Shown piece by piece: positions 1-52,594 of a DNA stretch of 56,177 nucleotides. Under the pieces are notes generated by a model. That model was not told the origin of the DNA. It was given only the letters and a program-made list of their open reading frames with translations, and ran no database searches. Within the stretch, counting starts at the first letter, position 1; every line of letters begins with the position of its first letter. The position numbers were made by a program, and so were the translations under genes. Source of the DNA: Kofleriaceae bacterium (GTDB taxonomy: Bacteria > Myxococcota_A > Polyangia > Haliangiales > Haliangiaceae); contig DASZXE010000335.1 in the NCBI GenBank assembly GCA_035546475.1, forward strand, positions 1-56,177, in the 5' to 3' direction.

Positions 1-408
1 CTGCTGGCGCGGCGCGAGCACCGCGCCCTCCCCGGCCAGCGCCGCGTGCCCGCGCTCGGTCAGGCGGATCACCGTCGTCGTCGCGCCGCTCGTCCCCGCC
101 GGCACCACGAGCCGCAGCGCCTCGCCCGGCGGCGCCTCGTAGTAGTCGGCGACCCACAGCGCGAGCGCGACCAGCTCCGGCGGCACCCGCGCGCCGCCGA
201 CCGCCGCGACGTCCGCCAGCTCGATCGCGGTGGCGGGCGGGGGCGCCGGCGCCAGCGTGACGACGCCCGGCACCTTGCGGCCCGCGAACGGGACCAGCAC
301 GCGCGCGCCGACGCCGATCGCGCCCGCCATCACCGGCGGCACCCGGTACGTGAACAGGCCGGCGACCGGCAGCGCGACCGCGACCTCGCAGTGGCGCGCG
401 ACGTCCAT
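1..408 (-). CDS. priA: Primosomal protein N' (PriA), N-terminal fragment continuing past the left edge
   Basis: Edge-truncated, so absent from the ORF track. My reverse-strand reading from ATG (408-406) gives MDVARHCEVAVALPVAGLFTYRVPPVMAGAIGVGARVLVPFAGRKVPGVV... This fits the PriA N-terminal pattern (V.V.LP....FTY.VP......G.RV.VPFG.R...GVV). The start lies 2 nt after the galU stop. Confidence 0.6.
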   Translation of the reverse strand, partial: MDVARHCEVAVALPVAGLFTYRVPPVMAGAIGVGARVLVPFAGRKVPGVVTLAPAPPPATAIELADVAAVGGARVPPELVALALWVADYYEAPPGEALRLVVPAGTSGATTTVIRLTERGHAALAGEGAVLAPRQQ

Positions 409-410
409 CG

Positions 411-1304
<894 letters not shown>

Positions 1305-1338
1305 GGTGATTCGCTACTCTACACGCCCCCCCTGAGAA

Positions 1339-1694
1339 CGCCCGCCGCCCCGCCCTTCCCGTGCCGCCGGGAGCGCGACGTCGGAGGCAGCGGGTAGGCT
1401 CCGCTGGTGGGAACGCTCGCCGTTCCGCCGGGAGCGCGACGTCGGAGGCAGCGGGGAGGCTCCGCTGGTGGAACGCTCGCTGCCGTTCCGCCGGGTGCGC
1501 GACGTCGGAGGCAGCGGGGAGGCTCGGCTCGTGGAACGCTCGCTGGCCGCTCGCCGCCGTTCCGCCGTGACCGCGACGCCGCAGGCCGCGGGTAGGCCTC
1601 GGCTCGTCGACGCCCGCCGCCCCGCCCTCCCGTTCCGCCGGGAACGCGACGTCGGAGGCAGCGGGTAGGCTCGGCTGGTGGAACGCTCGCTGCC
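1339..1694. repeat. Tandem array of 5 units (61-74 bp) filling the galU/flhB-like divergent intergenic region
   Basis: The anchor CCGCCGGG/CCGCCGTG recurs at 1364, 1425, 1488, 1562 and 1635. Unit consensus is GTTCCGCCGGGAGCGCGACGTCGGAGGCAGCGGGGAGGCTCCGCTGGTGGAACGCTCGCTGCC. First and last units also share the prefix CGCCCGCCGCCCCGCCCT(T)CCC. The last unit contains the GTG start (1678) and first codons of the downstream CDS. Confidence 0.85.
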
Positions 1695-2664
1695 ACCGTC
1701 CGCGCGGCGCCTCGAGCTGGCGCGTCGCGCCGGCGTCGTGCTCACGAGCCCGGCGGTGGTGGCGGCCGTGGCGCTGGCGGTGGGCGTGGCCGCCGCGGTG
1801 GCCGCGATCGGCGTGGTCGGCGCGTCCGTCGCCTCGTTCGCGCGCGATGGCTGGTCGCACGCGGCCGAGCGCGCACCGGTGTCGCGCGCGCTCGACGTCG
1901 ATGGCGCGAGGCTGGTCGGCCGTGCCGCGGGGCTCGCCACGCCCGTCGTGCTGGCCGCGTGCGGCGCAGCGCTCCTCGCGACGGCCGTGATCGCTCGCGG
2001 CGTCGTCGTGCCGCGCCGCCGGATCCGCGGCGCCCCTCCGGCAGCGGACGACGCCGGCGCGCGTGCGACCGACGCGCTCGTCGCCCTCGTCCGCGTCGCC
2101 GCGATGGCAGCGGTCGCGGTCGGCTTCCTCGTCGATCGCCTCCCGGCGATCGCGGCCGTCGCGGGCGGCACCTCCGCCGACGTGCCGCTGCGCCTGCGCG
2201 ACCTCGCCGTCGGACTGGTCGCGCGCGTCGCGGTCGCCGCCGTGGCCGCCAGCGTCCTCGAGCTCGCCGTCCGCGCCGCCCGCCGGCGCGGGGCCCTGCG
2301 CATGACCGTGCGCGAGGCCCGCGACGAGCAACGCGAGACCGCCGGCGATCCGCACCTCCGCCGCCGCCAGGGCGACGCCTCTCGCGCCGACGTCCGCGCG
2401 CGCATCGCCGACGCGGTCGTCCTGCTCGTCGGCGACGACCGCGCCGTCGCGATCGGCTGGCAGCCGGGGCGCGATCCGCGCGTCCTCGCCCGCGGCGCCG
2501 GCGTCACCGCCCGCGCGCTCCGCGCCGCCGCGCGCGCTCGACGGGTCCCGCTCGCCTTCGCTCCCGCGCTGGCCGGTTCGCTCGACGCCACCGGTCCCGT
2601 CACCGCCAGCGATCAGCCCGCCCTCGCCTCCCTGCTCGCCGCCCTCTCCATCGGCCCGCGCTGA
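1678..2664 (+). CDS. flhB: FlhB/SctU-family export-apparatus switch protein (atypical, no NPTH motif)
   Basis: 328 aa. N-terminus ERSLPPSARRLELARRAGVV matches EKTE.PT.KKL..AR.KGQV. Four hydrophobic segments follow, then the linker MTVREARDEQRETAGDPHLRRRQ (family M...E.K.E.KE.EGDP..K.R.R). The C-domain reads AVAIGW..GRDPRVLARGAG..A..LR..A....VPL. GTG start, weak SD. Confidence 0.8.
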   Translation: MERSLPPSARRLELARRAGVVLTSPAVVAAVALAVGVAAAVAAIGVVGASVASFARDGWSHAAERAPVSRALDVDGARLVGRAAGLATPVVLAACGAALLATAVIARGVVVPRRRIRGAPPAADDAGARATDALVALVRVAAMAAVAVGFLVDRLPAIAAVAGGTSADVPLRLRDLAVGLVARVAVAAVAASVLELAVRAARRRGALRMTVREARDEQRETAGDPHLRRRQGDASRADVRARIADAVVLLVGDDRAVAIGWQPGRDPRVLARGAGVTARALRAAARARRVPLAFAPALAGSLDATGPVTASDQPALASLLAALSIGPR

Positions 2665-2817
2665 AGGAGTTTCGCGGCGTCGACGCCGGGAGCGCCCGCC
2701 CTGCGCGGCGCGTGCGCGCGCTGTTGCGGTGGCAGCCAATCCCCGGGTGCGCGCCCGCCCGCCCGCGCGAAGGCGACGCGCGATCGGCGCCGAGCTTCCC
2801 GCGATGGTCGGCGACGC

Positions 2818-2865
2818 CCGAGCCTCGGCTGGCGCGTCGATCGCGCGCCAGCGCTCGAGGCTCGG
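2818..2865. terminator. Imperfect long hairpin between convergent flhB-like and fliR-like genes (candidate bidirectional terminator)
   Basis: CCCGAGCCTCGGCTGGCGCG-tcgat-CGCGCGCCAGCGCTCGAGGCTCGG. Core arms CTGGCGCG/CGCGCCAG and outer arms CCGAGCCTCGG/CTCGAGGCTCGG. No flanking T-tract. Confidence 0.3.
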
Positions 2866-2972
2866 CCGGCCGCGACCGTTCACGAAGGAGGCCACCGCCG
2901 AGGTTCATGCGGCCGGCCGTCCGCCGAGGCGTTCCTTGTCGCGGTGCTGCGCGTCCCGGTCGGCCCGCGCGA

Positions 2973-3725
2973 TCAACGGCCCGCGAGGCGAGCAATCGCG
3001 GCTGCGAGCGTGGCGGGGAGCGCGCGCGTGTCGCCCGCGACGGCGATCGCGATGGCCATGATCGCGGCCGCGGCGGCGAGCAGGATCGCGAGCCGTCGCA
3101 CGGCGGCCTCCGGCGCGACCGAGGTCGCCAGGCCGGCGGCGCGCTCGATGACGGCCGCCGCCAGCGCGACCAGCACGGCGGTCACCAGCAGCGGCGCGGC
3201 GAGGACGAGCGCGGAGCCCAGGATCGCGGCGCCGGCGTCGACGACCGAGCCGGCCAGCGCGGCCTCCCCGGCGCCGCCCACGGGCAGCGCGCGATACGAC
3301 AGCCCGACGGCCGACACCGCCGCCAGGTGCCCGCCGATCCCGAAGAAGACCACCGCGGCGAGGAGCCCGAGGCCGATGCCCCACGGCGAGCCTCGGTCGT
3401 CGTCGCCGCTCACTGCCGCCAGCCACCCGCCCGCCGCCGACGCCGCGAGCAGCGGCACGGCCGCGGTGACCCCGAGCGCGACGCCGATCAGCAGCTCGCG
3501 CGCGAGGACGATCAGGCGCCCGGCCATCGACGCCGCACGCAGCGCGGCCGCGGCGTCGCCGAGCCCGCCGGCGACGAGCGCCGCCACCACCAGCGCGATC
3601 GCCACCTGCGCCGTCCGCGGCAGCGGCAGCCCGGCCGCCGCCGGCGCGATCAGCACGAGCGGGCCCACGCGCGCCGCGGCGAGCAGCAGGCCCCAGGCAG
3701 TCAGCCCGCCCGCGGCCCCCGTCAC
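2973..3725 (-). CDS. fliR: FliR/SctT-family export-gate membrane protein
   Basis: 250-aa polytopic hydrophobic ORF of FliR size. It lies immediately downstream of the fliQ-like gene in the canonical P-Q-R order. Confidence 0.7.
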   Translation of the reverse strand: MTGAAGGLTAWGLLLAAARVGPLVLIAPAAAGLPLPRTAQVAIALVVAALVAGGLGDAAAALRAASMAGRLIVLARELLIGVALGVTAAVPLLAASAAGGWLAAVSGDDDRGSPWGIGLGLLAAVVFFGIGGHLAAVSAVGLSYRALPVGGAGEAALAGSVVDAGAAILGSALVLAAPLLVTAVLVALAAAVIERAAGLATSVAPEAAVRRLAILLAAAAAIMAIAIAVAGDTRALPATLAAAIARLAGR

Positions 3726-3746
3726 GCTGCGCCTTCGCCGCGCACG

Positions 3747-4019
3747 CTATCCGCCGCCTGCCGCCGGCACGAGCGCCATCACGTGAGCGGCGAACGCGAC
3801 GAGCTGATGCGCGACCAGCGGCGCGCTCACCACGACCGCGATCGCGACCGCGACCAGCCGCGGCGCGAGGCCGATCGACGGGTCGCGCGCCTGGGTGACG
3901 GCGCCGATGACCGCGGTGAGCGCGCCCGCGACGAGCCCCGCGAGCACGATCGGCGCGGCGAGCACGAGCGCCAGCAGGAGGCCATCCCGCGCGAGCGCGA
4001 CGAGCGCGGTCGTCGTCAC
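3747..4019 (-). CDS. fliQ: FliQ/SctS-family export-gate membrane protein
   Basis: 90 aa with two hydrophobic helices. The loop GAVTQARDPSIGLAPRLVAV corresponds to the family loop QA.TQIQE.TL.F.PKL.AV. Start overlaps the fliP-like stop (4016-4019). Confidence 0.75.
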   Translation of the reverse strand: MTTTALVALARDGLLLALVLAAPIVLAGLVAGALTAVIGAVTQARDPSIGLAPRLVAVAIAVVVSAPLVAHQLVAFAAHVMALVPAAGGG

Positions 4020-4855
4020 GCGTACCCCCGGATCAGGCCTTCGACCAGCAGCCGCCAGCCATCGACGGCGACGAAGAGCAGCAGCTTGAGCGGCAGCGAC
4101 ACCGCCGCCGGCGACACCGTCGTCAGCCCTGCAGACGAGAGTCCGATGCCGACGACCAGGTCGAGCACGAGGAACGGCAGGAACACCAGGAACGCGATCG
4201 CGAAGGCCTCGGTCAGCTCGCTCGTCACGAACGCCGCCGAGAGCACCAGCAGATCGTCCTCGGCGACGTCGGGCCCGCGGAGCTGCCGCGCCAGCGCAAC
4301 GAACGCGGCGCGGTCACCCGCGTGCGCGTGCCGCACGAGGAACGCGCGCACCGGCCCTTCCGCCCGCTCGGCCGCCACCGTCCAGCCCGCCAGGTCGTGC
4401 GGCAGCTCGCGTCCCGCCAGCGGGTCGCTCCCCGCACCTCCGCCCGCCGCCCCCGTCGGCACGTCCGCGGCCGTCCCGCCCGTCGCCGCCGCCCCGCCAC
4501 CCGACTGCGCCGCCGTCCCCGGAGCGCTGCCCGTCGCAGGCATCGTGTCACCCGGCGTCGGCGGCACGACCGCGCGACCCGGACCCGGCGGCAGCGCTCC
4601 ACGCAGCCTCGCCGGCGCGGTCGCGGTCACCGGCGCCACCGCATCGAGCACCTGCTCGCCGACCGGCGCCATCACGAACACGGTGACCAGCAGCGCCAGC
4701 CCGGTCACGACGATCCCCGGGGGCGCCTGCGGTGCCCCCAGCGCGTTGCGCAAGAGCGCCAGCACCACCGACGTCTTCACGAACGCCGAAAGCATCAGGG
4801 CCACGACCGGCACGATCGCGACCGCGGCGATCACCGCCACTCCTTCGAGCGTCAC
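4016..4855 (-). CDS. fliP: FliP/SctR-family export-gate membrane protein with a low-complexity insertion
   Basis: In-frame GTG at 4855 overlaps the upstream stop (GTGA). Family motifs present: SAFVKTSVVLALLRNALGAPQAPPGIVVTGLALLVTVFVMAPV and VTSELTEAFAIAFLVFLPFLVLDLVV...LPLKLLLFVAVDGW. The ORF-track N-terminus (to 5284) is Arg-rich read-through and was trimmed. Confidence 0.85.
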   Translation of the reverse strand: MTLEGVAVIAAVAIVPVVALMLSAFVKTSVVLALLRNALGAPQAPPGIVVTGLALLVTVFVMAPVGEQVLDAVAPVTATAPARLRGALPPGPGRAVVPPTPGDTMPATGSAPGTAAQSGGGAAATGGTAADVPTGAAGGGAGSDPLAGRELPHDLAGWTVAAERAEGPVRAFLVRHAHAGDRAAFVALARQLRGPDVAEDDLLVLSAAFVTSELTEAFAIAFLVFLPFLVLDLVVGIGLSSAGLTTVSPAAVSLPLKLLLFVAVDGWRLLVEGLIRGYA

Positions 4856-5268
4856 GCCGTTGGCTCCTCGCTCGCCCCGGCACCCGCCTCCGTCGCCGGC
4901 CCGCGCCGCCCGCTCCCCCGCCGCGCGAGCGCGTGCGCCACCAGCGCCGCGAACCCTCCGCGCGGCGCCGGCTCCTCCGGCAGCGCTTCTGCCTCGATCT
5001 CCGACAGCAGCTGGATCCCGCCCTCGGACGACCCGACCAGCAGCGTCCGCCCCCCGACCTCGACGACGTACAGCGCGCGCCGCGGCTCCAGCGGCAAGCG
5101 CCCGCGCACCCGGATCACCCCGTCGTCGCCGCCGCGTCCGCCGAGCCAGCGCCGCCCGTAGCGGGCCACCACGATGACCACCACGCAGACCAGCACCAGT
5201 ACGAGCAGCGACGTCAGCGCCAGCTCGCCATAGCCTCCCGCCGCCGGCGCGGCTTGCCCTGGATGCAT
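4852..5268 (-). CDS. fliO: FliO-like small membrane protein
   Basis: Taken from ATG 5268 (MHPGQAAP...). It has a single TM (LALTSLLVLVLVCVVVIVVA) followed by VIRVRGRLPLEPRRALYVVEVGGRTLLVGSSEGGIQLL. That matches the FliO pattern (L.V.....L......L.LVEVG.R.LLLGV.....LL). Position is directly upstream of the fliP-like gene. Start uncertain. Confidence 0.5.
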   Translation of the reverse strand: MHPGQAAPAAGGYGELALTSLLVLVLVCVVVIVVARYGRRWLGGRGGDDGVIRVRGRLPLEPRRALYVVEVGGRTLLVGSSEGGIQLLSEIEAEALPEEPAPRGGFAALVAHALARRGSGRRGPATEAGAGASEEPTA

Positions 5269-5843
5269 GGGGCCAGCAAACCACCTACCCCTGACAGCGA
5301 CCGCCGATCGGCGGCCGACCGGTCGGCGGGACGTCTGCGGAGCGTGGCCCGGACGTGGACGAAGGCGATCGCGCAGCCATGGGCCTTTGCGCTCGGTCCC
5401 CCCATGGTCCGAAGGGGAGGTGGCGCAAGAAAGGGCTGAAGAACGACCCGGAGCGGGTTCGCCTGGAAATGCCGGCCCGGTGACACGCCGACCGCGAATT
5501 CCGCCACGGCACGACGATGACGGACATCGAACGGGCGGCCGAGCGACTCGAGGCCGAAACCGGCGGACCGTCGATCGGCTCGACGCTGGGGCGGATGAAG
5601 CCGGAGAAGCCGGCGCCCGAGGCGGTGCCCGCGGCGTCGCCGATGGCCGCAGCGAGCGCGCCGCCCGCCGGCGCCGCCACCGTCCACGCCAGCACCCGGC
5701 GCGCCCGCGGCGACCCGCACGCGCCACGGCCACGGGACCGCGAGCAGACGTTCAGCCACGCGCGGCAGGGCCGCCGCGACGTCGAACCAGCCGCCCCGAT
5801 GGCCTCGGACCGCTCTCCCACCGATCTCCGCGGTGCCGCGAGC

Positions 5844-6656
5844 CTACTCTGCGGTCCAGCTCGGCAACTCCGCCGCCCCTGCCGCGCGCCGACCGTGCAG
5901 ATCGAACAGCGGCGGATTCGTCTCCCCGTCGGCGTCGCGGGCGCAGCGGAACGCGGCGTGCGTGATCATGATCCGGCCGGGGACCTCGCCGTTGCTCCCC
6001 CCCCAGGTCGCCCAGTTGTCGCCCCGGATCATGCCGAGGGGATACGCAAGGTTCAGAGCGTCCGAGTCGTCGCTGCGCTCCATCACCCACTGGGCGTTGT
6101 GGTCGATGGCGCGCGCGCCGGCGGGTCCCTTGTAAGTCAGGCAGCGCAGCGAGAACAGCTCTCGGTCGTCGCAAGGAGTGCGGGCATTGCCCCATGGATG
6201 CGTCCGACCGTCGGTGCCGCGGGCCACCCGCTCGAACTCGTCGGCGGTCGGCAGCCGTGCGCCGCGCCAGCGACAGTACGCCTGCGCCTGCTCGTGACGG
6301 ACCTTGGCGAGCCGGTTGTAGTACTCGGCGGCGCTCGACTGGAAGCCGCCCAGCTGAAACGGTTCCCGCGGAGGTTCCACGTCATCGACGCAGGCGCCCG
6401 CGCGGACGCAGCGTGCATACTCGTCGCGCGTCACCAGGTTGCGGTCGATGTAGAACGCATGGAGCGTGACGATGGCACGCCGCTCTCGCACGCCGTCGCA
6501 TCCCACATCATGCGGCTCGTAGGGCGTGCAGTTGGCACCCGCCCGGAACGGACCGGCGGGCACCAGCACCTCCTGCGACTCGGCGACCGCTGCTCCGCGG
6601 CTGCCGCAGCCGATCAACGCCAGCAGCGCGACCACGATCGTGATCTTGTTCGTCAT
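5844..6656 (-). CDS. Formylglycine-generating-enzyme (FGE/SUMF1)-domain lipoprotein
   Basis: 270 aa. Lipoprotein signal MTNKITIVVALLALIGC. FGE-sulfatase motifs: FYIDRNLVTRDEYARCVRAGAC and YCRWRGARLPTADEFERVARGTDGRTHPWGN. Start overlaps the upstream stop (ATGA at 6653-6656). Confidence 0.8.
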   Translation of the reverse strand: MTNKITIVVALLALIGCGSRGAAVAESQEVLVPAGPFRAGANCTPYEPHDVGCDGVRERRAIVTLHAFYIDRNLVTRDEYARCVRAGACVDDVEPPREPFQLGGFQSSAAEYYNRLAKVRHEQAQAYCRWRGARLPTADEFERVARGTDGRTHPWGNARTPCDDRELFSLRCLTYKGPAGARAIDHNAQWVMERSDDSDALNLAYPLGMIRGDNWATWGGSNGEVPGRIMITHAAFRCARDADGETNPPLFDLHGRRAAGAAELPSWTAE

Positions 6657-8644
6657 CGGCCTCGGTCCTGGTGGTCCGTCTCGATCGACGCCCCGAGCTG
6701 AACAATCGTCTGGTCCAGGAGCTGATCCATCAGCGCGATGGCGCCCAGACGCTGGCGCTCGGGCGAGGGACGTAGCGAGCCACCCTTGCGCGACAGCCAG
6801 GTGGAAGGCTGGCCCACCGCACCCGTCTCATCGGTGAAGCGGACGTTGCCGGCCTCGTCACGGACGACCACGATCGGCGGCGCGCCCGAAGCGACCGTGC
6901 CGTGCGCGCGAATCACGATGCCGAGCTCGCGCAGCGGCCTGCTCTTGATGGTCTCGATCATGTTCAAGTGAACACCGGTCAGCCTTCCCTGCTTGACCCT
7001 GACTGCCCGCTCGGGCGTGTCGTAATCGGCCTCGAACGCGAGGTCGAGCATCCCGTCAACGCTCGCCATCGCCCCGCCATCCATCGGCGGCACCGCCGCG
7101 CCGCGGACGTCGGTGATCGCCGCGCCGTCGGCGCCGGGCGCCAGGCCGAGCCCGGCGGCCTGCTTGGCGCTCAGCGAGCCGAGCGCGTGCTGCGACAGGA
7201 AGCGCATCCACGCCAGCCGCGTCTCGTCCTTCTGGAACCCCTTGGCGTCGTCCGCCAGGTCCGCGAACTGGTGGCACATCTCTTCCATCTGCGCGATGGC
7301 CTGCTCCGGGTCGACACGCAGGGTGGGGAGCAACTGGCTGCGGAAGTGGGTCAGCGCGTCGGCGCGTCCGGTCGCCGACCAGTTGACCGCCGACGCGAGG
7401 CCGCTGAAGAAGTCGAGGGTCTCGCCACTGGCGATGCCGTCGACGGCCGCCTCGGCGCCCTGGCCGAACGCCGTCTCGCGCCCCGCCTTGCCCGCCTGCT
7501 TGAACGCCTGCTTGAACGACTCGACGAGCATCGCGGCCGAGCCGGGGTTGTCCACCTTCTCGCGCCCCGGCGACCAGACGACCGCGCCGTGGATGTCGTC
7601 GGCGCGCGCCGCGCCCGGGACCACGTGGCTCACCACCTTGCTCAGCTTCACCGCCAGCGCGCCGGCGATGCCGGCGGTGGCGGCATCGAGGGCGAACATC
7701 GCCAGGTCGAACAGCAGGCTGTGCTGGCTGCGCGGCACGAGCCGGTGGAACGCGTCGACCTCCTTGCCGACGTCGTCGACTCCCTGCCGTTGCTCGGCGG
7801 TCAAGAGCTCGAGCTGGTGCTGGGCGCGCTCGTACACTTCCAGCAGCCGGTTGTCGGCGCCCTGGGCGTACGGCGCGTCGTTCTGGTTCTCGCGCGCGAG
7901 AGCGTCGTCGAGTTGACGCGTGCGCGCCGCGTCCGCCGCCGCGGTCTGCTGCTCACCGGCGCGAGCGACAGCGGCAGCTTCTTCCTGCGCGTGGCTCGGC
8001 TCACCCGGCGCGTGCGCGGCCCCGATGACCAGGATCTCGATCGTGGTCTCCGGCCAGGCGTCGGTCTGCCACCGCGCGGTCACCCGCAGCACGGCCGACG
8101 CGCGCTCTCGCCGGTTCGGCTGGTACGCGATGGTGACCGGCGTGCCGAGGCCCTCGCGGCTCGGGTGCAGCCGGTCCGGCTTGCCGATCAGCAGGAGGTC
8201 CGGGCTACCGCTCAGCGAGACGTTCACCGCCGCCTCGTACGTCGGGTGCAGGTTGAAGATCTGCCGGTCCTCGGTCGCGCACTCGCCCGTGACGATCTCG
8301 CCGAAGTCGATCCGCGGCGGCCCCACCAGCCGAGCCGACGCCGGGTCCACGGCGGCGGCCGGGGCGCCACCGCCGCCCACCGGGTTTCCGCCGACGGGCA
8401 GGATCTCCGGCGCAGGGACGCCCCAGTCGCCATTGCCATGACCTCCGGGGCGGTGGACGGCCGGATCGACATCGGCTGCTGCCGCTCGCGAGCCACCGAC
8501 GCCTTCGCCACGAGGGCCGTAGCTACCGAAACCATCGGCGACAGCACCCCCGTACGGCGCATCGAGCGGCCGGTCGGCGGCGGGCGCCGAGCCGAAGGCG
8601 ACGGAGGACGAGGAACGATCGTCAGGTCTACGTCCGAAGGTCAT
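6653..8644 (-). CDS. Hypothetical 663-aa protein (disordered Gly/Pro N-terminus, Ig-like beta-sandwich region, coiled coil, hydrophobic segment, large C-terminal domain)
   Basis: Long ORF with coding-like codon usage. Start chosen at ATG 8644 (MTFGRRPDD...), preceded by GAGGGG 5 nt upstream. No signal peptide and no motif I recognise. Translationally coupled to the FGE lipoprotein gene. Confidence 0.6.
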   Translation of the reverse strand: MTFGRRPDDRSSSSVAFGSAPAADRPLDAPYGGAVADGFGSYGPRGEGVGGSRAAAADVDPAVHRPGGHGNGDWGVPAPEILPVGGNPVGGGGAPAAAVDPASARLVGPPRIDFGEIVTGECATEDRQIFNLHPTYEAAVNVSLSGSPDLLLIGKPDRLHPSREGLGTPVTIAYQPNRRERASAVLRVTARWQTDAWPETTIEILVIGAAHAPGEPSHAQEEAAAVARAGEQQTAAADAARTRQLDDALARENQNDAPYAQGADNRLLEVYERAQHQLELLTAEQRQGVDDVGKEVDAFHRLVPRSQHSLLFDLAMFALDAATAGIAGALAVKLSKVVSHVVPGAARADDIHGAVVWSPGREKVDNPGSAAMLVESFKQAFKQAGKAGRETAFGQGAEAAVDGIASGETLDFFSGLASAVNWSATGRADALTHFRSQLLPTLRVDPEQAIAQMEEMCHQFADLADDAKGFQKDETRLAWMRFLSQHALGSLSAKQAAGLGLAPGADGAAITDVRGAAVPPMDGGAMASVDGMLDLAFEADYDTPERAVRVKQGRLTGVHLNMIETIKSRPLRELGIVIRAHGTVASGAPPIVVVRDEAGNVRFTDETGAVGQPSTWLSRKGGSLRPSPERQRLGAIALMDQLLDQTIVQLGASIETDHQDRGR

Positions 8645-10636: not shown

Positions 10637-12211
10637 TCAGTTGCAGGTGCCGTTGAGCGTGATGTCGCCGGCGCCGCCGCGCGGCAGGAAGACGTAGCTG
10701 TTCGTGTCGGAGAAGGCGTTGTAGTGCCAGATGCCGATGAGTGATGCGTAGCAGGTGTCCGCCGTGATCGTGAAACGGTAGATGTCGTCGTCCGCGATGA
10801 AGTTGGTCGTTCCGACGGTCAGGGTGCGCTGATGCGCCGTGGCGTTGCTCTCCGTACCGCTCACCTTCACGTTGTCGAGCTCGATGAGGACGCCCTCGTA
10901 GGGCTCGCCGGTGGCGTTCACGAGCAGGTTCGGCACGGTCAGGCCGGTGACCGGGGTCGGCGCACCGGCGGGCGCGCTCACGAACGTCACGTTCGAGAAC
11001 GAGACCTCGGTCGTCGTGTCGCCGCCGTCGCCGCCGTCGAACTCCTGCACCTTGCCCGACACGTTCACGCGGGCGCCGACGACGATGTTGTCCGGCAGCA
11101 CCGCCGCGCCCGAGCCGCGGAAGACGTACACGCCCTGGTTCGGCGCCGCCTGCAGGTTGTCGGCGACCCACAGGTTCTTCTTGTTGAACGCCACGCCGGT
11201 CACCACGACGTTGCTCAGGTTCACCATCGAGTTGACCGGCACGACCCCGGTCTGGACGTTCGCCACCGTCGTCGTCACCGTGCAGCTCTGCACCGCGGCC
11301 AGGCACGAGTTGTCGTTGCAGTCGGCGAAGCCGTTGGCGTCGTTGTCGATGCCGTCGGCGCAGGAGGTCGCGTCCGCCTCGGGCGCCGGGCAGTCGGTGC
11401 CCCCGGCCACGATGTCGGCCGTGCTGCGCGGCAGGACCTTGTACTGGAAGAAGTAGTCGCCGATGCCGGTGATGCTCGCGAGGCAGTCGCCCTTGGCGAC
11501 CAGCGCGTCCGGGATCTCCGCCAGGCTCGAGTCGACGTCGTAGTAGCCGGTGATGAGGAAGTCCTTGAACGTCGGGTCGGGCATCGAGCCGCCGATCGGC
11601 TGGATGTCGCGCGTCACCGACACGTTCTGGACCGTGATGAGGACGTGCTCCCACTTCTCCTGCTCGGCGAGGCGCATCGCCTCCGGCAGCCGGCCGTTCG
11701 CCAGCGCATCGACGACGTGCGGCGCCGGCACCGTGCCGGTCCCGACCTTGTTCACCGTCATCATGCCGCCGCCGGCGCCGACCAGCTCCGTGATCGTCGC
11801 CGTGTCGGTCGCGAGGCTGAACTCGTCCTTCTCCGCGTTCGTGATGTCGACGAGGTCGCCGACCGACAGCGCGTCGACCTGCTCGAGCGGCGCGCCGAAC
11901 ACCAGCACGCCCGAGTACTCGCCGCCCTCCGGCTCCTCGACGTAGAAGTTCCCCTCCCGGTTCCCGTACTTGTCGATGGCGGTGACGACCACGCCGCGCA
12001 GCGTGACCGGCGTGCCGACCGGCGTGTTGTCGTCCTGCACGGCCTGGATCTTCATGTCGTCCGGGTTCACGGCGTCGATGCCGCCGTCGCTGCCGGGGTT
12101 GACCCCGTCGTCATCGCCGCTGGACGAGCTACGGCACGCGCCGCCGGCGACGGCGAGGAGAGCCAGGACCAGGACGGCGAACGGTTGCGCAAGCAGTCGA
12201 CGTGCACGCAT
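10637..12211 (-). CDS. Predicted lipoprotein with two similar beta-barrel (OB-like) modules flanking a Cys/Asp-rich motif
   Basis: GGAGG lies 7 nt before ATG 12211. Signal MRARRLLAQPFAVLVLALLAVAGGAC. Module 1 reads ...TPVTLRGVVVTAIDKYGN..GNFYVEEPEGG.YSGVLVF. Module 2 reads ...VNLSNVVVTGVAFNKKNLWVAD.....NQGVYVF. Central motif is CADGIDNDANGFADCNDNSC. Confidence 0.7.
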   Translation of the reverse strand: MRARRLLAQPFAVLVLALLAVAGGACRSSSSGDDDGVNPGSDGGIDAVNPDDMKIQAVQDDNTPVGTPVTLRGVVVTAIDKYGNREGNFYVEEPEGGEYSGVLVFGAPLEQVDALSVGDLVDITNAEKDEFSLATDTATITELVGAGGGMMTVNKVGTGTVPAPHVVDALANGRLPEAMRLAEQEKWEHVLITVQNVSVTRDIQPIGGSMPDPTFKDFLITGYYDVDSSLAEIPDALVAKGDCLASITGIGDYFFQYKVLPRSTADIVAGGTDCPAPEADATSCADGIDNDANGFADCNDNSCLAAVQSCTVTTTVANVQTGVVPVNSMVNLSNVVVTGVAFNKKNLWVADNLQAAPNQGVYVFRGSGAAVLPDNIVVGARVNVSGKVQEFDGGDGGDTTTEVSFSNVTFVSAPAGAPTPVTGLTVPNLLVNATGEPYEGVLIELDNVKVSGTESNATAHQRTLTVGTTNFIADDDIYRFTITADTCYASLIGIWHYNAFSDTNSYVFLPRGGAGDITLNGTCN

Positions 12212-27807: not shown

Positions 27808-29943
<2,136 letters not shown>

Positions 29944-30061
29944 GTCATGTCGAGGTCCGGTGGCGGAGGGAGCGGCGGGGGCCGAGGAAGACGGTGTCGC
30001 GCGGCGGGTCGCCTGCGCCGGACCGGGGCACGTCACGCGGGCGCGACGGCGGCGGTCCCCA

Positions 30062-30089
30062 CCGGCTGGATCGATTCCGGTCCAGCCGG
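30062..30089 (-). other. 9-bp-stem hairpin in the rpsG-fusA spacer
   Basis: CCGGCTGGA-tcgattccgg-TCCAGCCGG (perfect inverted repeat); no T-tract. Confidence 0.3.
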
Positions 30090-30202
30090 GGACTGTGAAA
30101 AGCCGGGTGGTTCGACGCCGTGCAACGGCATCGCCTTCCCGACCCCCGTGGAGCTGTCTCTTCCTTCGGTCCTCGCCTCCTGAACGACAGAGGTGACGCT
30201 AC

Positions 30203-50061: not shown

Positions 50062-50248
50062 GCGGACGTCGTAACACGCCGGCGCGAGCGTCCGCGCCGC
50101 GCGACGTGCGCGAGGCGATCGGTTCGCGCAACGTTTCACTTGACGGCGCCGCTGTCACACCGCTCTGCTAGATCGAACAACGATCGGATCGATCATGGCG
50201 ATCGGTTCCGGCATCGACGGGTCGCACACGGACGAGGTCGCTCCAGGC

Positions 50249-52594
50249 ATGAAGGTCGCGTTCACCCACAACCTCCGCCTCACGGACGTCCGCCACTCCG
50301 AGAAGGAGGCCGAGTTCGACAGCGTCGAGACCGTCCACGCGATCGCCGCCGCGCTCGAGGCCGCCGGCCACGAGGTCGAGAAGGTCGAGGTCTCCGGACC
50401 GGCGTCGACCCTGCTCGAGCGGCTCGAGGCGATCGATCCGGACATCATCTTCAACACGGCCGAGGGCCAGCAGGGCAAGCTGCGCGAGGCGCTCTACCCT
50501 GCCCTGTTCGAGGAGCTCGGCATCCCGTACACGGGCGCCGACGCCTACACGAACGCGGTCACGCTCGACAAGTGGCTGACCAAGCTGGTCGTGCAGCGGG
50601 CCGGCGTCGACACGCCGCGCGCGTGCCTGGTCAACCCGCGCAACTTCGACGCGATCCTCGACCGCGGCCCCGGGCTGGCGTTCCCGGTGATCGTCAAGCC
50701 GAACCACGAGGGGTCGAGCAAGGGGATCTATGGAGGAGGAGGCGGGGGCGGCGGCGCGGCCGGCGGCGGCGCGCTGGCCCGCGAGGGCTCGGTCGTGCGC
50801 GAGCCGAAGGACCTGATGGCGGTGCTGAAGGCGGCGCTGCGGGCCTACCCGGACGGCGTGCTGATCGAGGAGTACGTCGAGGGCACCGATGTGCTGGTCG
50901 GCTACATCGACGGCGTCGGCCACGACAACGGGCTGCTCGCCCCGGTCGAGCTGCTGGTCGACCCGAGCCTCGACCGGCCGTTCAACGTCTGGGACTACCG
51001 GCTGAAGAACGTCGAGCCCGGCAAGGTGCAGTTCCGCTGCCCGGCCAGCATCCCGCGCGACATCGCGGCGCGGCTGCGGCAGATCGCGGCCGAGGTCATC
51101 CGCGCGCTCGGCCTGCGGGACGTGGCGCGCATCGACTTCCGGATCGCGCCGGACGGCCGGATCTACTTCCTCGAGGCGAACGCGATCCCGTCGCTGGCGC
51201 CGACCGCGGCGCTGTTCGCGGCGACGTCGCAGCTCGGCATGGGCTACGCGTCGACGGTGGCGGCCATCCTCCACGCGGCGGCGCTGCGGTCGGGGCTGGC
51301 GACGGCGAGCCAGCTCGGCGTCACCCGCCGGCCGGGCCGGGTGCAGCCGATCCGGGTCGGCTTCACCTACAACGTCAAGCGCGACCACGACGGCGACGAC
51401 GAGGCGGAGTGGGACCCGCCGGAGACGATCATCGCGATCGCGAACGCGCTGGCGCGGCAGGGGCACATCGTCGTCCACCTCGAGGCGACGCCGGACCTGC
51501 CGAGGGTGCTGGCCGAGGCCGATGTCGACCTGATCTTCAACATCGCCGAGGGGGTGGAGGGCCGCAACCGCGAGGCCCAGGTGCCCGCCCTCTGCGAGCT
51601 GCTGGGGGTGCCGTACACCGGCTCCGACAGCGCCACGCTCGCGATCGCCCTCGACAAGGCGCTCTGCAAGAAGGTGCTGATGCAGCACGACATCCTGACG
51701 CCGAAGTTCCAGGTGATGGAATCGGCGCGGGAGCGGATCGACCCGGACCTGCGGTTCCCGGTCATCGTCAAGCCGAACGCCGAGGGGTCGAGCAAGGGCA
51801 TCGAGGGGTCGACGTCGGTGTGCGACTCGGAGGAGGAGCTGCGGGCGGCGGTCAAGCTGTGCGTCGAGCGCTACCGGCAGCCGGCGCTGGTCGAGGAGTA
51901 CATCGCCGGCCGCGAGTTCACGGTCGGGCTCCTCGGCGACAAGCGGCCGCGGGTGCTGCCGCCGATGGAGATCTGCTTCAAGGACGCGGAGAACGACCGG
52001 CCGGTCTACGACTACGCGGTCAAGCAGGAGTGGGAGAAGCACGTCTTCTACCAGTGCCCGGCGAAGCTGACCGAGGCGGAGCAGAAGGCGATCGAGAAGA
52101 TCGCGCGGGCGACGTTCTGGGCGCTCGACTGCCGCGACGTGGCGCGCGTCGACCTGCGCATGGACAAGGACGGGCGGATCTACGTCCTCGAGGTGAACCC
52201 GCTGCCGGGGCTGACGCCCGGCTACTCCGACCTCGTGCTGATCGCGCAGGCGGTGGGCATCGAGTACGACCAGCTCATCGCCGAGATCATGGGCGGCGGG
52301 CTGCGGCGCATGCGCGAGAAGCGGCGGGAGGAGCGCGAGGAGACCGAGGCGCGCAACAAGGCGCAGGCGAAGGCGGCGGCGACCGACGCGGCGGCCAAGC
52401 TGGAGAAGGCGGCCGAGAAGGCCGAGAAGGCGGCCGAGAAGGCGGAGAAGGCCGCGAAGCGGATGGCGAAGCTGGCGGGCGACAACGGCAAGCCGCGGCC
52501 GACGACCGCGGTGCCGGTGGCGGAGGCGGCGCCGACGGTCGTGGTCAGCGAGGGCGACTCCGACCGGAACGTGGTGCCGGAGTCGGTGCACTGA
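50249..52594 (+). CDS. Fused tandem D-alanine--D-alanine-ligase-like ATP-grasp protein with a Lys/Ala/Glu-rich tail
   Basis: Two homologous modules. Module 1: MKVAFTHNLRL...FNTAEG..GK.REA..PALFEELGIPYTG...FPVIVKPNHEGSSKGI...RIDFR...GRIYFLEANAIPSL. Module 2 (from about 51350): IRVGFTYNVKR...FNIAEGVEGRNREAQVPALCELLGVPYTGS...FPVIVKPNAEGSSKGI...RVDLRMDKDGRIYVLEVNPLPGL. The track start 50195 is an alternative. Confidence 0.8.
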   Translation: MKVAFTHNLRLTDVRHSEKEAEFDSVETVHAIAAALEAAGHEVEKVEVSGPASTLLERLEAIDPDIIFNTAEGQQGKLREALYPALFEELGIPYTGADAYTNAVTLDKWLTKLVVQRAGVDTPRACLVNPRNFDAILDRGPGLAFPVIVKPNHEGSSKGIYGGGGGGGGAAGGGALAREGSVVREPKDLMAVLKAALRAYPDGVLIEEYVEGTDVLVGYIDGVGHDNGLLAPVELLVDPSLDRPFNVWDYRLKNVEPGKVQFRCPASIPRDIAARLRQIAAEVIRALGLRDVARIDFRIAPDGRIYFLEANAIPSLAPTAALFAATSQLGMGYASTVAAILHAAALRSGLATASQLGVTRRPGRVQPIRVGFTYNVKRDHDGDDEAEWDPPETIIAIANALARQGHIVVHLEATPDLPRVLAEADVDLIFNIAEGVEGRNREAQVPALCELLGVPYTGSDSATLAIALDKALCKKVLMQHDILTPKFQVMESARERIDPDLRFPVIVKPNAEGSSKGIEGSTSVCDSEEELRAAVKLCVERYRQPALVEEYIAGREFTVGLLGDKRPRVLPPMEICFKDAENDRPVYDYAVKQEWEKHVFYQCPAKLTEAEQKAIEKIARATFWALDCRDVARVDLRMDKDGRIYVLEVNPLPGLTPGYSDLVLIAQAVGIEYDQLIAEIMGGGLRRMREKRREEREETEARNKAQAKAAATDAAAKLEKAAEKAEKAAEKAEKAAKRMAKLAGDNGKPRPTTAVPVAEAAPTVVVSEGDSDRNVVPESVH

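Follow-up and report, generated by a model that had tools for sequence, protein, structure and literature searches.

The Myxo group of non-flagellar type III secretion systems (NF-T3SSs), which comprises short and long loci and includes T3SS* and T3SS(2) of Myxococcus xanthus, is conserved and basal, near the flagellar root (Abby and Rocha, 2012; PMC3459982). Loci of this group are vertically inherited, lack needle, translocon and secretin genes, and keep sctV, sctJ and sctQ beside sctRSTU, with sctN according to the literature; their SctU has the NPTH autocleavage site. FliO homologues are found in the NF-T3SS operons of Myxococcota (PMC12248157). T3SS* of M. xanthus is needleless yet functional, which indicates that incomplete myxobacterial type III secretion systems (T3SSs) can be functional (PMC12075869). 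Here, we describe an island of five export-gate genes, fliO-fliP-fliQ-fliR and a convergent flhB, in a Kofleriaceae bacterium (assembly GCA_035546475.1); the window that was analyzed is the entire contig DASZXE010000335.1 (56 kb; 56,177 nucleotides; GC content 65–80%). The module probably falls within a lineage that is already known, the needleless NF-T3SSs of myxobacteria (Abby and Rocha, 2012). It shares with the Myxo group a Myxococcota host, an SctR-type FliP, fliO in the operon, the absence of needle, translocon and secretin, and a conserved, vertically inherited locus, but it consists of O-P-Q-R and the convergent FlhB only, has neither NPTH nor the methionine gate (Met gate) of FliP, and occupies a housekeeping site between rplQ and galU-priA. 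On balance, the island is probably a functional, vertically inherited, gate-only and non-switching derivative of the myxobacterial needleless T3SS, with an FHIPEP (FlhA/SctV) protein probably encoded elsewhere. This explanation takes the island to be fixed in Haliangiales (Kofleriaceae/Haliangiaceae), with galU/priA on one side and the ribosomal super-operon on the other.

Three further systems are relevant for comparison. The flagellar export gate (Salmonella, Vibrio; 6F2D, 6S3L) is composed of the same five families, with the P-Q-R gene order, FliO and an E46/K54-type pair in FliQ. The closed gate is normally stabilized by the FliR plug, the FliP Met gate and FliQ ionic pairs, and FlhA is reported to use the proton motive force to energize the opening of the gate (bioRxiv 10.1101/2021.01.17.426956). 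The CORE nanotube platform consists of FliO, FliP, FliQ and FliR together with FlhB and FlhA, and myxococci are named among its carriers that have no flagella or injectisomes (Bhattacharya et al., 2019). Like the island, CORE is an export-apparatus-only gene set, considered able to act without a flagellum or injectisome; its function has been tested only in Bacillus, Listeria and Escherichia coli. The nanotube interpretation of CORE is contested, and nothing connects the island to nanotubes. E. coli ETT2 is also an incomplete T3SS gene set retained in a genome, but ETT2 is variably degraded and strain-specific, whereas, throughout an order-level clade, the island is uniform and intact and evolves under purifying selection.

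The five genes were recognized by Pfam profiles, for which the cut-off is the curated gathering score, in scans covering the non-ribosomal open reading frames (ORFs) of the window:

4852 to 5268, minus strand: fliO-like gene, 138 aa (PF04347, 51.7 bits; cut-off 22)
4016 to 4855, minus strand: fliP/sctR-like gene, 279 aa (PF00813, 174.2 bits; cut-off 26.9)
3747 to 4019, minus strand: fliQ/sctS-like gene, 90 aa (PF01313, 50.1 bits; cut-off 25)
2973 to 3725, minus strand: fliR/sctT-like gene, 250 aa (PF01311, 64.2 bits; cut-off 27.8)
1678 to 2664, plus strand: flhB/sctU-like gene, 328 aa (PF01312, 107.8 bits; cut-off 24.4)

Each of the five clears its Pfam family threshold comfortably, and FlhB, FliR and FliQ are, judged from their profile scores, true but divergent family members. 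The order fliO-fliP-fliQ-fliR (5268 to 2973, minus strand) keeps P-Q-R contiguous, and flhB on the plus strand converges on fliR with 308 bp between them. A first-pass annotation, made from the letters of the window, had described the minus-strand genes as chained by overlaps; this holds for the fliO/fliP and fliP/fliQ junctions, which have GTGA overlaps (the GTG start of fliP overlaps the fliO stop codon), but fliQ and fliR are separated by 21 nt. The orientation of flhB and the borders are as that annotation had given them: on the left, galU (411–1304, minus strand) and then the first ~130 codons of priA (4–393, minus strand), and on the right, five lipoprotein or unknown genes, followed by rplQ, rpoA and the ribosomal super-operon. 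Its central observation, a FliO-FliP-FliQ-FliR plus FlhB module with no other type III gene in the window, is likewise borne out. None of the non-ribosomal ORFs of the window matched a Pfam family of FHIPEP, ATPase, ring, secretin, rod, hook or needle proteins, nor were flagellar structural or motor genes (fliF/G/M/N, flgB–G, fliE, hook, flagellin, mot) found within it. When the locus was tested against the Myxo group set (sctRSTU with sctV, sctN, sctJ and sctQ), only O, P, Q, R and B were present in the window. An Rfam scan of positions 1–7000 gave a single sub-threshold chance match.

A second test used the flagellar and injectisome equivalog and subfamily cut-offs of NCBIfam. FliP passes the EscR/YscR/HrcR subfamily profile NF009438 (190.2 against 179), and FliO is barely above TIGR03500 (56.0 against 55.25). 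The flagellar equivalog cut-offs are missed by all but this marginal FliO: by FliP (154.2 against 217.45), FliQ (49.5 against 88.9), FliR (52 against 168.6) and FlhB (78.8 against 349.25). The best sequence matches in the PDB are flagellar FliP, FliQ and FlhB. Unlike the flagellar gate, however, the island has no flagellar genes nearby, its FliP has no signal peptide, and the MMM gate, NPTH and the plug aromatics are absent. A flagellar remnant was set aside as an explanation, given the SctR-type FliP and the myxobacterial NF-T3SSs as the nearest full clusters. To our knowledge, the host group is non-flagellated.

The distribution of the island was assessed by a FliP-alignment scan of one genome per GTDB species, which yielded 504 loci; the best 80 of these 504 were analyzed. 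The closest FliP homologues (70–80% identity) are in metagenome-assembled genomes (MAGs) labelled Kofleriaceae, Haliangiaceae or Myxococcales, and RpoA of the window shares 92.6% identity with its counterpart in a Haliangiaceae MAG (genus UBA2376). All six homologue contexts inspected read rpoA-rplQ-[variable genes]-fliO-fliP-fliQ-fliR<-flhB-(galU)-priA-patA_N-fmt-rsmB-rpe. In 48 of the 80 loci, mostly from Kofleriaceae/Haliangiales MAGs, FliP is accompanied by one or more of the flanks rplQ, galU and priA, so the location next to galU/priA pointed out in the first-pass annotation is conserved in relatives; both rplQ and priA flanks are present in 24. All five genes were detected by tblastn in 29 of the 80, and the remainder are mostly on short contigs. 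In deeper lineages, the island directly follows rplQ (locus L094) or has flhB co-directional with fliOPQR (L092). Near-outgroup FliP representatives (P0129, P0131, P0123 and P0132) are on short contigs or in further island-type loci.

In relatives, the fliR–flhB gap is a hot spot for insertions. A 693-aa unknown protein is encoded there in L005 (11674–13755), and a trypsin-PDZ (HtrA-like) protease in L009 (12520–13974); L014 and L026 have larger inserts of 7–8 kb at the fliR/flhB convergence point. Two loci have other arrangements. In L056 (9441–11745), from a Kofleriaceae-labelled MAG of 57% GC, fliO-fliP-fliQ-fliR stand alone between gcvP and ychF, with no flhB nearby and no rplQ/priA synteny, a different and further-reduced orphan arrangement. 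In L086 (9950–10693), from a Polyangia MAG, fliP has a weak fliO-like match upstream, and fliQ, fliR and flhB are missing; the neighbors of this fliP are rsmB and a response regulator gene, and its GMHML gate is still present.

FlhB of the window carries a PPSARRLELARRAG motif at its N-terminus, and its hydrophobic domain is accompanied by a C-terminal domain that lacks NPTH. It aligns with Salmonella and Vibrio FlhB over residues 2–306 (phmmer), and VTNPTHYSVALQY of Salmonella FlhB is aligned to LLVGDDRAVAIGW of the window protein, which places the following codons:

2431 to 2442, plus strand: codons of G252-D-D-R255, at the NPTH autocleavage position (phmmer alignment with Salmonella FlhB)

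The lack of NPTH noticed at first pass is thus a property of the clade: NP[TSE]H occurs in none of the FlhB orthologues from 49 island loci, and the position reads LGDD, LGDG, VGAD or similar (GD-x). Switching of substrate specificity depends on NPTH cleavage (PMC7064499); FlhB without this site would not undergo autocleavage and would have a single, non-switching specificity. An AlphaFold2 model of FlhB from its single sequence had a predicted local distance difference test (pLDDT) score of 52 and was unusable.

In FliP, two regions are relevant:

4109 to 4129, minus strand: codons of G243-LTTVS-P249, at the FliP methionine-gate position (alignment with Salmonella GMMMVPP)
4355 to 4636, minus strand: variable low-complexity periplasmic loop rich in Pro, Gly, Ala and Thr, residues 74–167 (pLDDT and alignment)

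The gate reads G-L-x-S/T-T/V in essentially all island FliP proteins, and rarely GM, whereas G-M-x-M is the dominant form across the wider FliP family. FliP begins at the first transmembrane helix (query residue 5 aligns to FliP residue 44) and has no N-terminal signal peptide, like SctR, the injectisome-type FliP. The AlphaFold2 model (mean pLDDT 68.9; 80–94 in the C-terminal hairpins) predicts a FliP/SctR fold with two helical hairpins, and all 42 Foldseek matches to this model in the PDB (E ≤ 0.001) are FliP/SpaP chains. The low-complexity insert, which the first-pass annotation had counted among the peculiarities of this copy, is present and predicted to be disordered (residues ~74–154, with pLDDT below 50 over residues 76–142), but it does not define the window copy: the loop is 102 aa long here and 45–146 aa across the clade, and is therefore a clade trait.

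FliR matches Shigella SpaR weakly (E = 8e-4), and in this weak alignment the loop corresponding to the SpaR plug is shorter, acidic and without Phe. In FliQ, D46 and R54 align with E46 and K54 of Salmonella FliQ; of 55 island FliQ proteins, 42 matched a search pattern for such an acidic/basic pair, with D/R in 39. Judged from these alignments, the FliQ pair alone survives among the three closure elements. FliO has one transmembrane helix and a conserved PLEPRRALYVVEVGGRTLLVG core in the alignment with relatives.

The non-island loci from the same scan belong to Myxococcaceae, Pyxidicoccus, Anaeromyxobacter, unclassified Myxococcales and Thermoanaerobaculia. An FHIPEP gene lies ~3 kb downstream of sctR in 13 of these loci, and sctV directly follows sctU in every full cluster; in L088, genes for SctJ and SctQ are just upstream of R-S-T-U-V. 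NPTH is kept in 13 of 15 sctV-linked Myxococcota/Thermoanaerobaculia clusters, compared with 0 of 49 in the island, and NPTH loss therefore coincides with separation from sctV. The sctV-linked clusters keep at least one gate methionine, except for the Anaeromyxobacter type (GLTQL), and the gate is GMQSL or GMQTL in L088-type and Myxococcaceae clusters. Judged from these sequences, the Met gate is being eroded more broadly among myxobacteria, and in the island this process is complete. The non-island FliP proteins that score highest in BLAST are SctR of Pyxidicoccus, Anaeromyxobacter and the L088 type (186–199 bits), by a small margin, as some flagellar-length FliP proteins score 189–191 bits; Salmonella-type FliP scores 159 bits. 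The close scores of myxobacterial SctR and flagellar-length FliP fit the basal position of the Myxo group (PMC3459982). The supplements of Abby and Rocha contain no Haliangium or Sorangium entries.

Four of the non-island loci (L045, L054, L060 and L070), from Thermoanaerobaculia/Acidobacteriota MAGs, are non-flagellar-looking sctR...sctU-sctV clusters. Their FliP proteins matched the same clade-specific peptide patterns as myxobacterial FliP, NPTH is present in three of the four, and L054 and L060 also have an SctN-like motif.

Upstream regions of fliO and flhB contain the following elements:

5269 to 5299, minus strand: putative fliO promoter, with a GTCAGG box and the extended −10-like TGgTTTGCT ending 6 nt before ATG (comparison with relatives)
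1359 to 1694, plus strand: five tandem copies, 63–65 nt each and the fourth degenerate, of a unit of flhB promoter plus start (Tandem Repeats Finder and a repeat finder)

In relatives, the pattern upstream of fliO is GTCAGA-N9-TGnTAnnnn-N6-ATG. In the orthologous upstream regions, fliO and flhB share a GTC(A/G)GA box ~9 nt upstream of an extended −10-like TGnTAnnnn, which is 6 nt before the start codon. These shared elements may be co-regulated promoters giving leaderless or near-leaderless mRNAs; scans with sigma-70 and terminator consensus sequences found nothing. The repeat unit is GTCGGAGG-N6-GTAGGCT-N6-GTG GAA CGC TCG CTG, i.e., the promoter and the first five codons, and the real flhB start at 1678 is within the last copy. 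The 21-nt core of the repeat occurs 4 times, against 0.01 expected by chance, and upstream copies open short repeat-encoded ORFs (e.g., 1468–1668, 66 aa). The array that the first-pass annotation regarded as regulatory-looking is thus present, but it is not a defining feature of the module: in relatives, the promoter-like element is present only once, and BLAST of the repeat unit against them revealed no array elsewhere. It appears to be a genome-specific local tandem duplication of the flhB promoter and start codon, although it could also be an assembly artifact.

A reading of the island as a non-functional, slowly decaying relic of the ancestral myxobacterial T3SS, one of the possibilities raised at first pass, would be in line with the local absence of the remaining machine, the loss of canonical functional motifs (NPTH, Met gate), the further-reduced versions in L056 and L086, and the fast divergence of FliR and FlhB. 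Several lines of evidence point in the opposite direction. Reading frames are intact throughout the island loci, in dozens of species-level genomes with conserved position. The ratio of non-synonymous to synonymous divergence (dN/dS, NG86) over all pairs is 0.48–0.72, compared with 0.16–0.46 for housekeeping genes, but these all-pair ratios are inflated because a GC content of ~95% at third codon positions saturates pS at ~0.4–0.5. Selection was therefore read from unsaturated close pairs by pN/pS, the corresponding ratio of proportions. This ratio is 0.06–0.19 in L037/L038, 0.08–0.18 in L042/L074, 0.06–0.26 in L046/L074 and 0.08–0.30 in L033/L047, whereas RpoA, PriA, GalU and RplQ give 0.01–0.41 in the same four pairs. 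Two further pairs are higher (L024/L029, 0.04–0.52; L005/L037, 0.43–0.78). As values in unsaturated close pairs (~0.06–0.30) resemble those of housekeeping neighbors, these comparisons indicate that all five genes are under purifying selection. The replacement motifs GD-x and G-L-x-S/T-T/V are conserved clade-wide rather than randomly degraded, and the promoter-like elements are conserved as well. With intact frames and low pN/pS in most pairs, the pattern is not that of pseudogenes. By these sequence comparisons the relic reading is largely refuted, and we regard it as highly improbable.

Whether the island is an orphan in its genome is a separate question. Supplementary file 2 of PMC11821767 tabulates M. 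xanthus T3SS homologues in 46 Myxococcota MAGs, including two Haliangiaceae MAGs (8.8 Mb, 73.7–73.9% GC, 92–94% complete) with the following entries:

E1_bin.479: contiguous 02048 (R), 02049 (S), 02051 (U) and 02052 (V)
E1_bin.479: second set 05636 (R), 05637 (S) and 05639 (U), no V; solitary SctV 03094
H1_Bin.107: contiguous 06307 (R), 06308 (S), 06310 (U) and 06311 (V)
H1_Bin.107: second set 00432 (R) and 00433 (S); solitary SctV 02497

Both MAGs have one SctQ-like entry each and no SctJ, SctD, SctL, SctI or SctO entries; SctN entries include the adjacent gene pairs 02929/02930 and 06387/06388 (PMC11821767), which are suspected to be general ATPase or ATP-synthase subunits. If the V-less set is the island, Haliangiaceae would be without rings, rod and needle, but would have FHIPEP and a second gate set. 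On the evidence of this table, the genome-wide orphan status proposed at first pass is doubtful: "no FlhA" is probably true only locally, with FlhA/SctV probably supplied in trans, and the island is probably not the sole PQR/FlhB copy in the genome. The notion of a split locus, in which a complete system elsewhere would lack its own PQR/FlhB genes, does not apply as it was formulated, because R, S and U are all present at the other locus as well (T is undetected at the thresholds of the table).

The same table bears on the possibility that the island is a spare or paralogous gate, whose P, Q, R and B proteins assemble with SctV, and any SctQ or SctN, of an sctRSTUV locus elsewhere, providing a second specificity without autocleavage. 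Each Haliangiaceae MAG has two sctR/sctS sets, one of them contiguous with sctU-sctV (PMC11821767), and an NPTH-less FlhB would suit a fixed-specificity variant beside a presumably NPTH-bearing SctU. However, the second set was not retrieved from any island-bearing genome, and the distribution of the island, which encodes an assembly factor of its own (FliO), is much wider, and its position much more constant, than would be expected of a mere spare. We know of no precedent for the mixing of subunits between paralogous gates, and such a role seems quite unlikely.

Several points weigh against the island being a functional gate-only derivative served by FHIPEP in trans. FlhB and FliR evolve fast and, together with FliQ, fall below every NCBIfam equivalog cut-off, a sequence divergence already noted at first pass. 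Without the Met gate and the plug aromatics, the complex could fail to seal or conduct like a T3SS gate, and the further-reduced versions in L056 and L086 show that erosion does occur. Neither the window nor the sequence up to 10 kb from each of ~50 island loci contained an FHIPEP domain or motif. Searches with a Myxococcota/Thermoanaerobaculia SctV profile and with a single Anaeromyxobacter SctV showed no SctV in an island-bearing genome, but both were saturated and hence uninformative: the best 120 matches listed were from Myxococcaceae/Archangiaceae or Anaeromyxobacteraceae, with no Kofleriaceae/Haliangiaceae among the matches listed. Also, the identity of the V-less set with the island, and its link to a solitary sctV, are inferred from gene numbering in the published table.

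The local absence of sctV, set against its position after sctU in every full cluster, is what a stand-alone minimal channel would predict, i.e., a FliO-assembled FliP5Q4R1-FlhB complex operating without FHIPEP, ATPase or rings as a passive or otherwise-gated inner-membrane conduit or, in the sense of nanotube CORE, a membrane-remodelling platform. NPTH switching and the Met gate, both tied to canonical operation, are lost clade-wide; FliPQR(-FlhB) is stable and self-contained in vitro (PMC7064499), low-level export without the ATPase is known (PMC7064499; PMC4230889), and CORE genes occur in bacteria without flagella or injectisomes, including myxococci (Bhattacharya et al., 2019). However, FlhA/SctV is needed for opening driven by the proton motive force in every studied T3SS (bioRxiv 10.1101/2021.01.17.426956), Haliangiaceae MAGs appear to encode FHIPEP homologues, one of them solitary (PMC11821767), and CORE as defined includes FlhA, which is absent locally in the island. 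A channel that dispenses with FHIPEP is accordingly an improbable alternative.

For the favored gate-only derivative with FHIPEP in trans, a mode of action can be outlined from the genes and by analogy with known gates. fliOPQR and flhB would form two convergent units with similar promoters (GTCRGA box and extended −10), probably transcribed as leaderless mRNAs, and O/P and P/Q would be translationally coupled. FliO would scaffold the FliP pentamer, FliR and four FliQ subunits would finish the helical P5Q4R1 channel, and one FlhB would wrap the channel; without FlhB autocleavage, the gate would keep one substrate specificity. Closure would be rebuilt, with small polar residues in place of the Met gate, a short acidic plug loop and the retained FliQ salt-bridge pair. 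Opening and energization would probably come from an FHIPEP (SctV) protein encoded elsewhere. As ring, rod, needle and secretin are lacking, substrates would be delivered only across or into the inner membrane and would thus reach the periplasm or stay in that membrane. That these features together constitute a gate-only type III system of Haliangiales, i.e., a FliO-assembled P5Q4R1-FlhB channel, possibly with a separate FHIPEP ring, with rebuilt closure, without substrate switching and independent of the MS and C rings, the ATPase, the rod, the needle and the secretin, is a tentative proposal that we hold to be possible rather than probable.

Other features of the window were noted in passing. 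The genes beside fliO for 159-aa, 499-aa, 770-aa and FGE-sulfatase proteins were considered as parts of the system and rejected, as they are not conserved in relatives. A 524-aa predicted lipoprotein without a Pfam match is encoded directly after rplQ (10640–12211, minus strand) and is kept at the same place in ~40 island loci with 33–57% identity; it belongs to the syntenic block rplQ-lipoprotein-[variable]-fliOPQR. Inside the ribosomal region, an EF-G-like GTPase gene with an AHVDAGKTT motif (27808–30198, minus strand; ~75% GC against ~68% in its neighbors) has a long Arg/Pro-rich open frame upstream and may encode a divergent second EF-G. A 799-aa protein (50195–52591, plus strand) has two matches to the C-terminal (ATP-grasp) domain of D-Ala-D-Ala ligase, the best at residues 509–699, and a lysine/alanine-rich tail, an unusual tandem Ddl-like fusion.

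The first-pass annotation viewed the module as the best candidate for an undescribed system. This is too strong, because the Myxo needleless NF-T3SS lineage is known; the components are routinely annotated, and the island is probably a further-reduced variant of that lineage, not a categorically new system. What stands is that, in the literature searched, the island is not described as a distinct, conserved, NPTH-less, gate-only module. For annotation, such loci are no evidence of a flagellum or an injectisome.

If functional, as the selection data indicate, the island is a natural experiment on the smallest useful T3SS gene set. Two elements regarded as near-universal, the NPTH switch and the methionine gate, would both be dispensable while the complex is long retained, and the island sequences provide a concrete set for testing how a gate is sealed and opened without them. 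The findings extend the story of needleless myxobacterial T3SSs from Myxococcia to Polyangia/Haliangiales, predators that abound in soil and activated sludge and of which few have been cultured. If the proposed gate-only system is real, it would be a natural minimal T3SS protein-conducting channel, maintained at one place in the core genome throughout an order of predatory soil bacteria, and would represent either the end-point of reduction or a present-day counterpart of the pre-injectisome intermediate that Abby and Rocha proposed.

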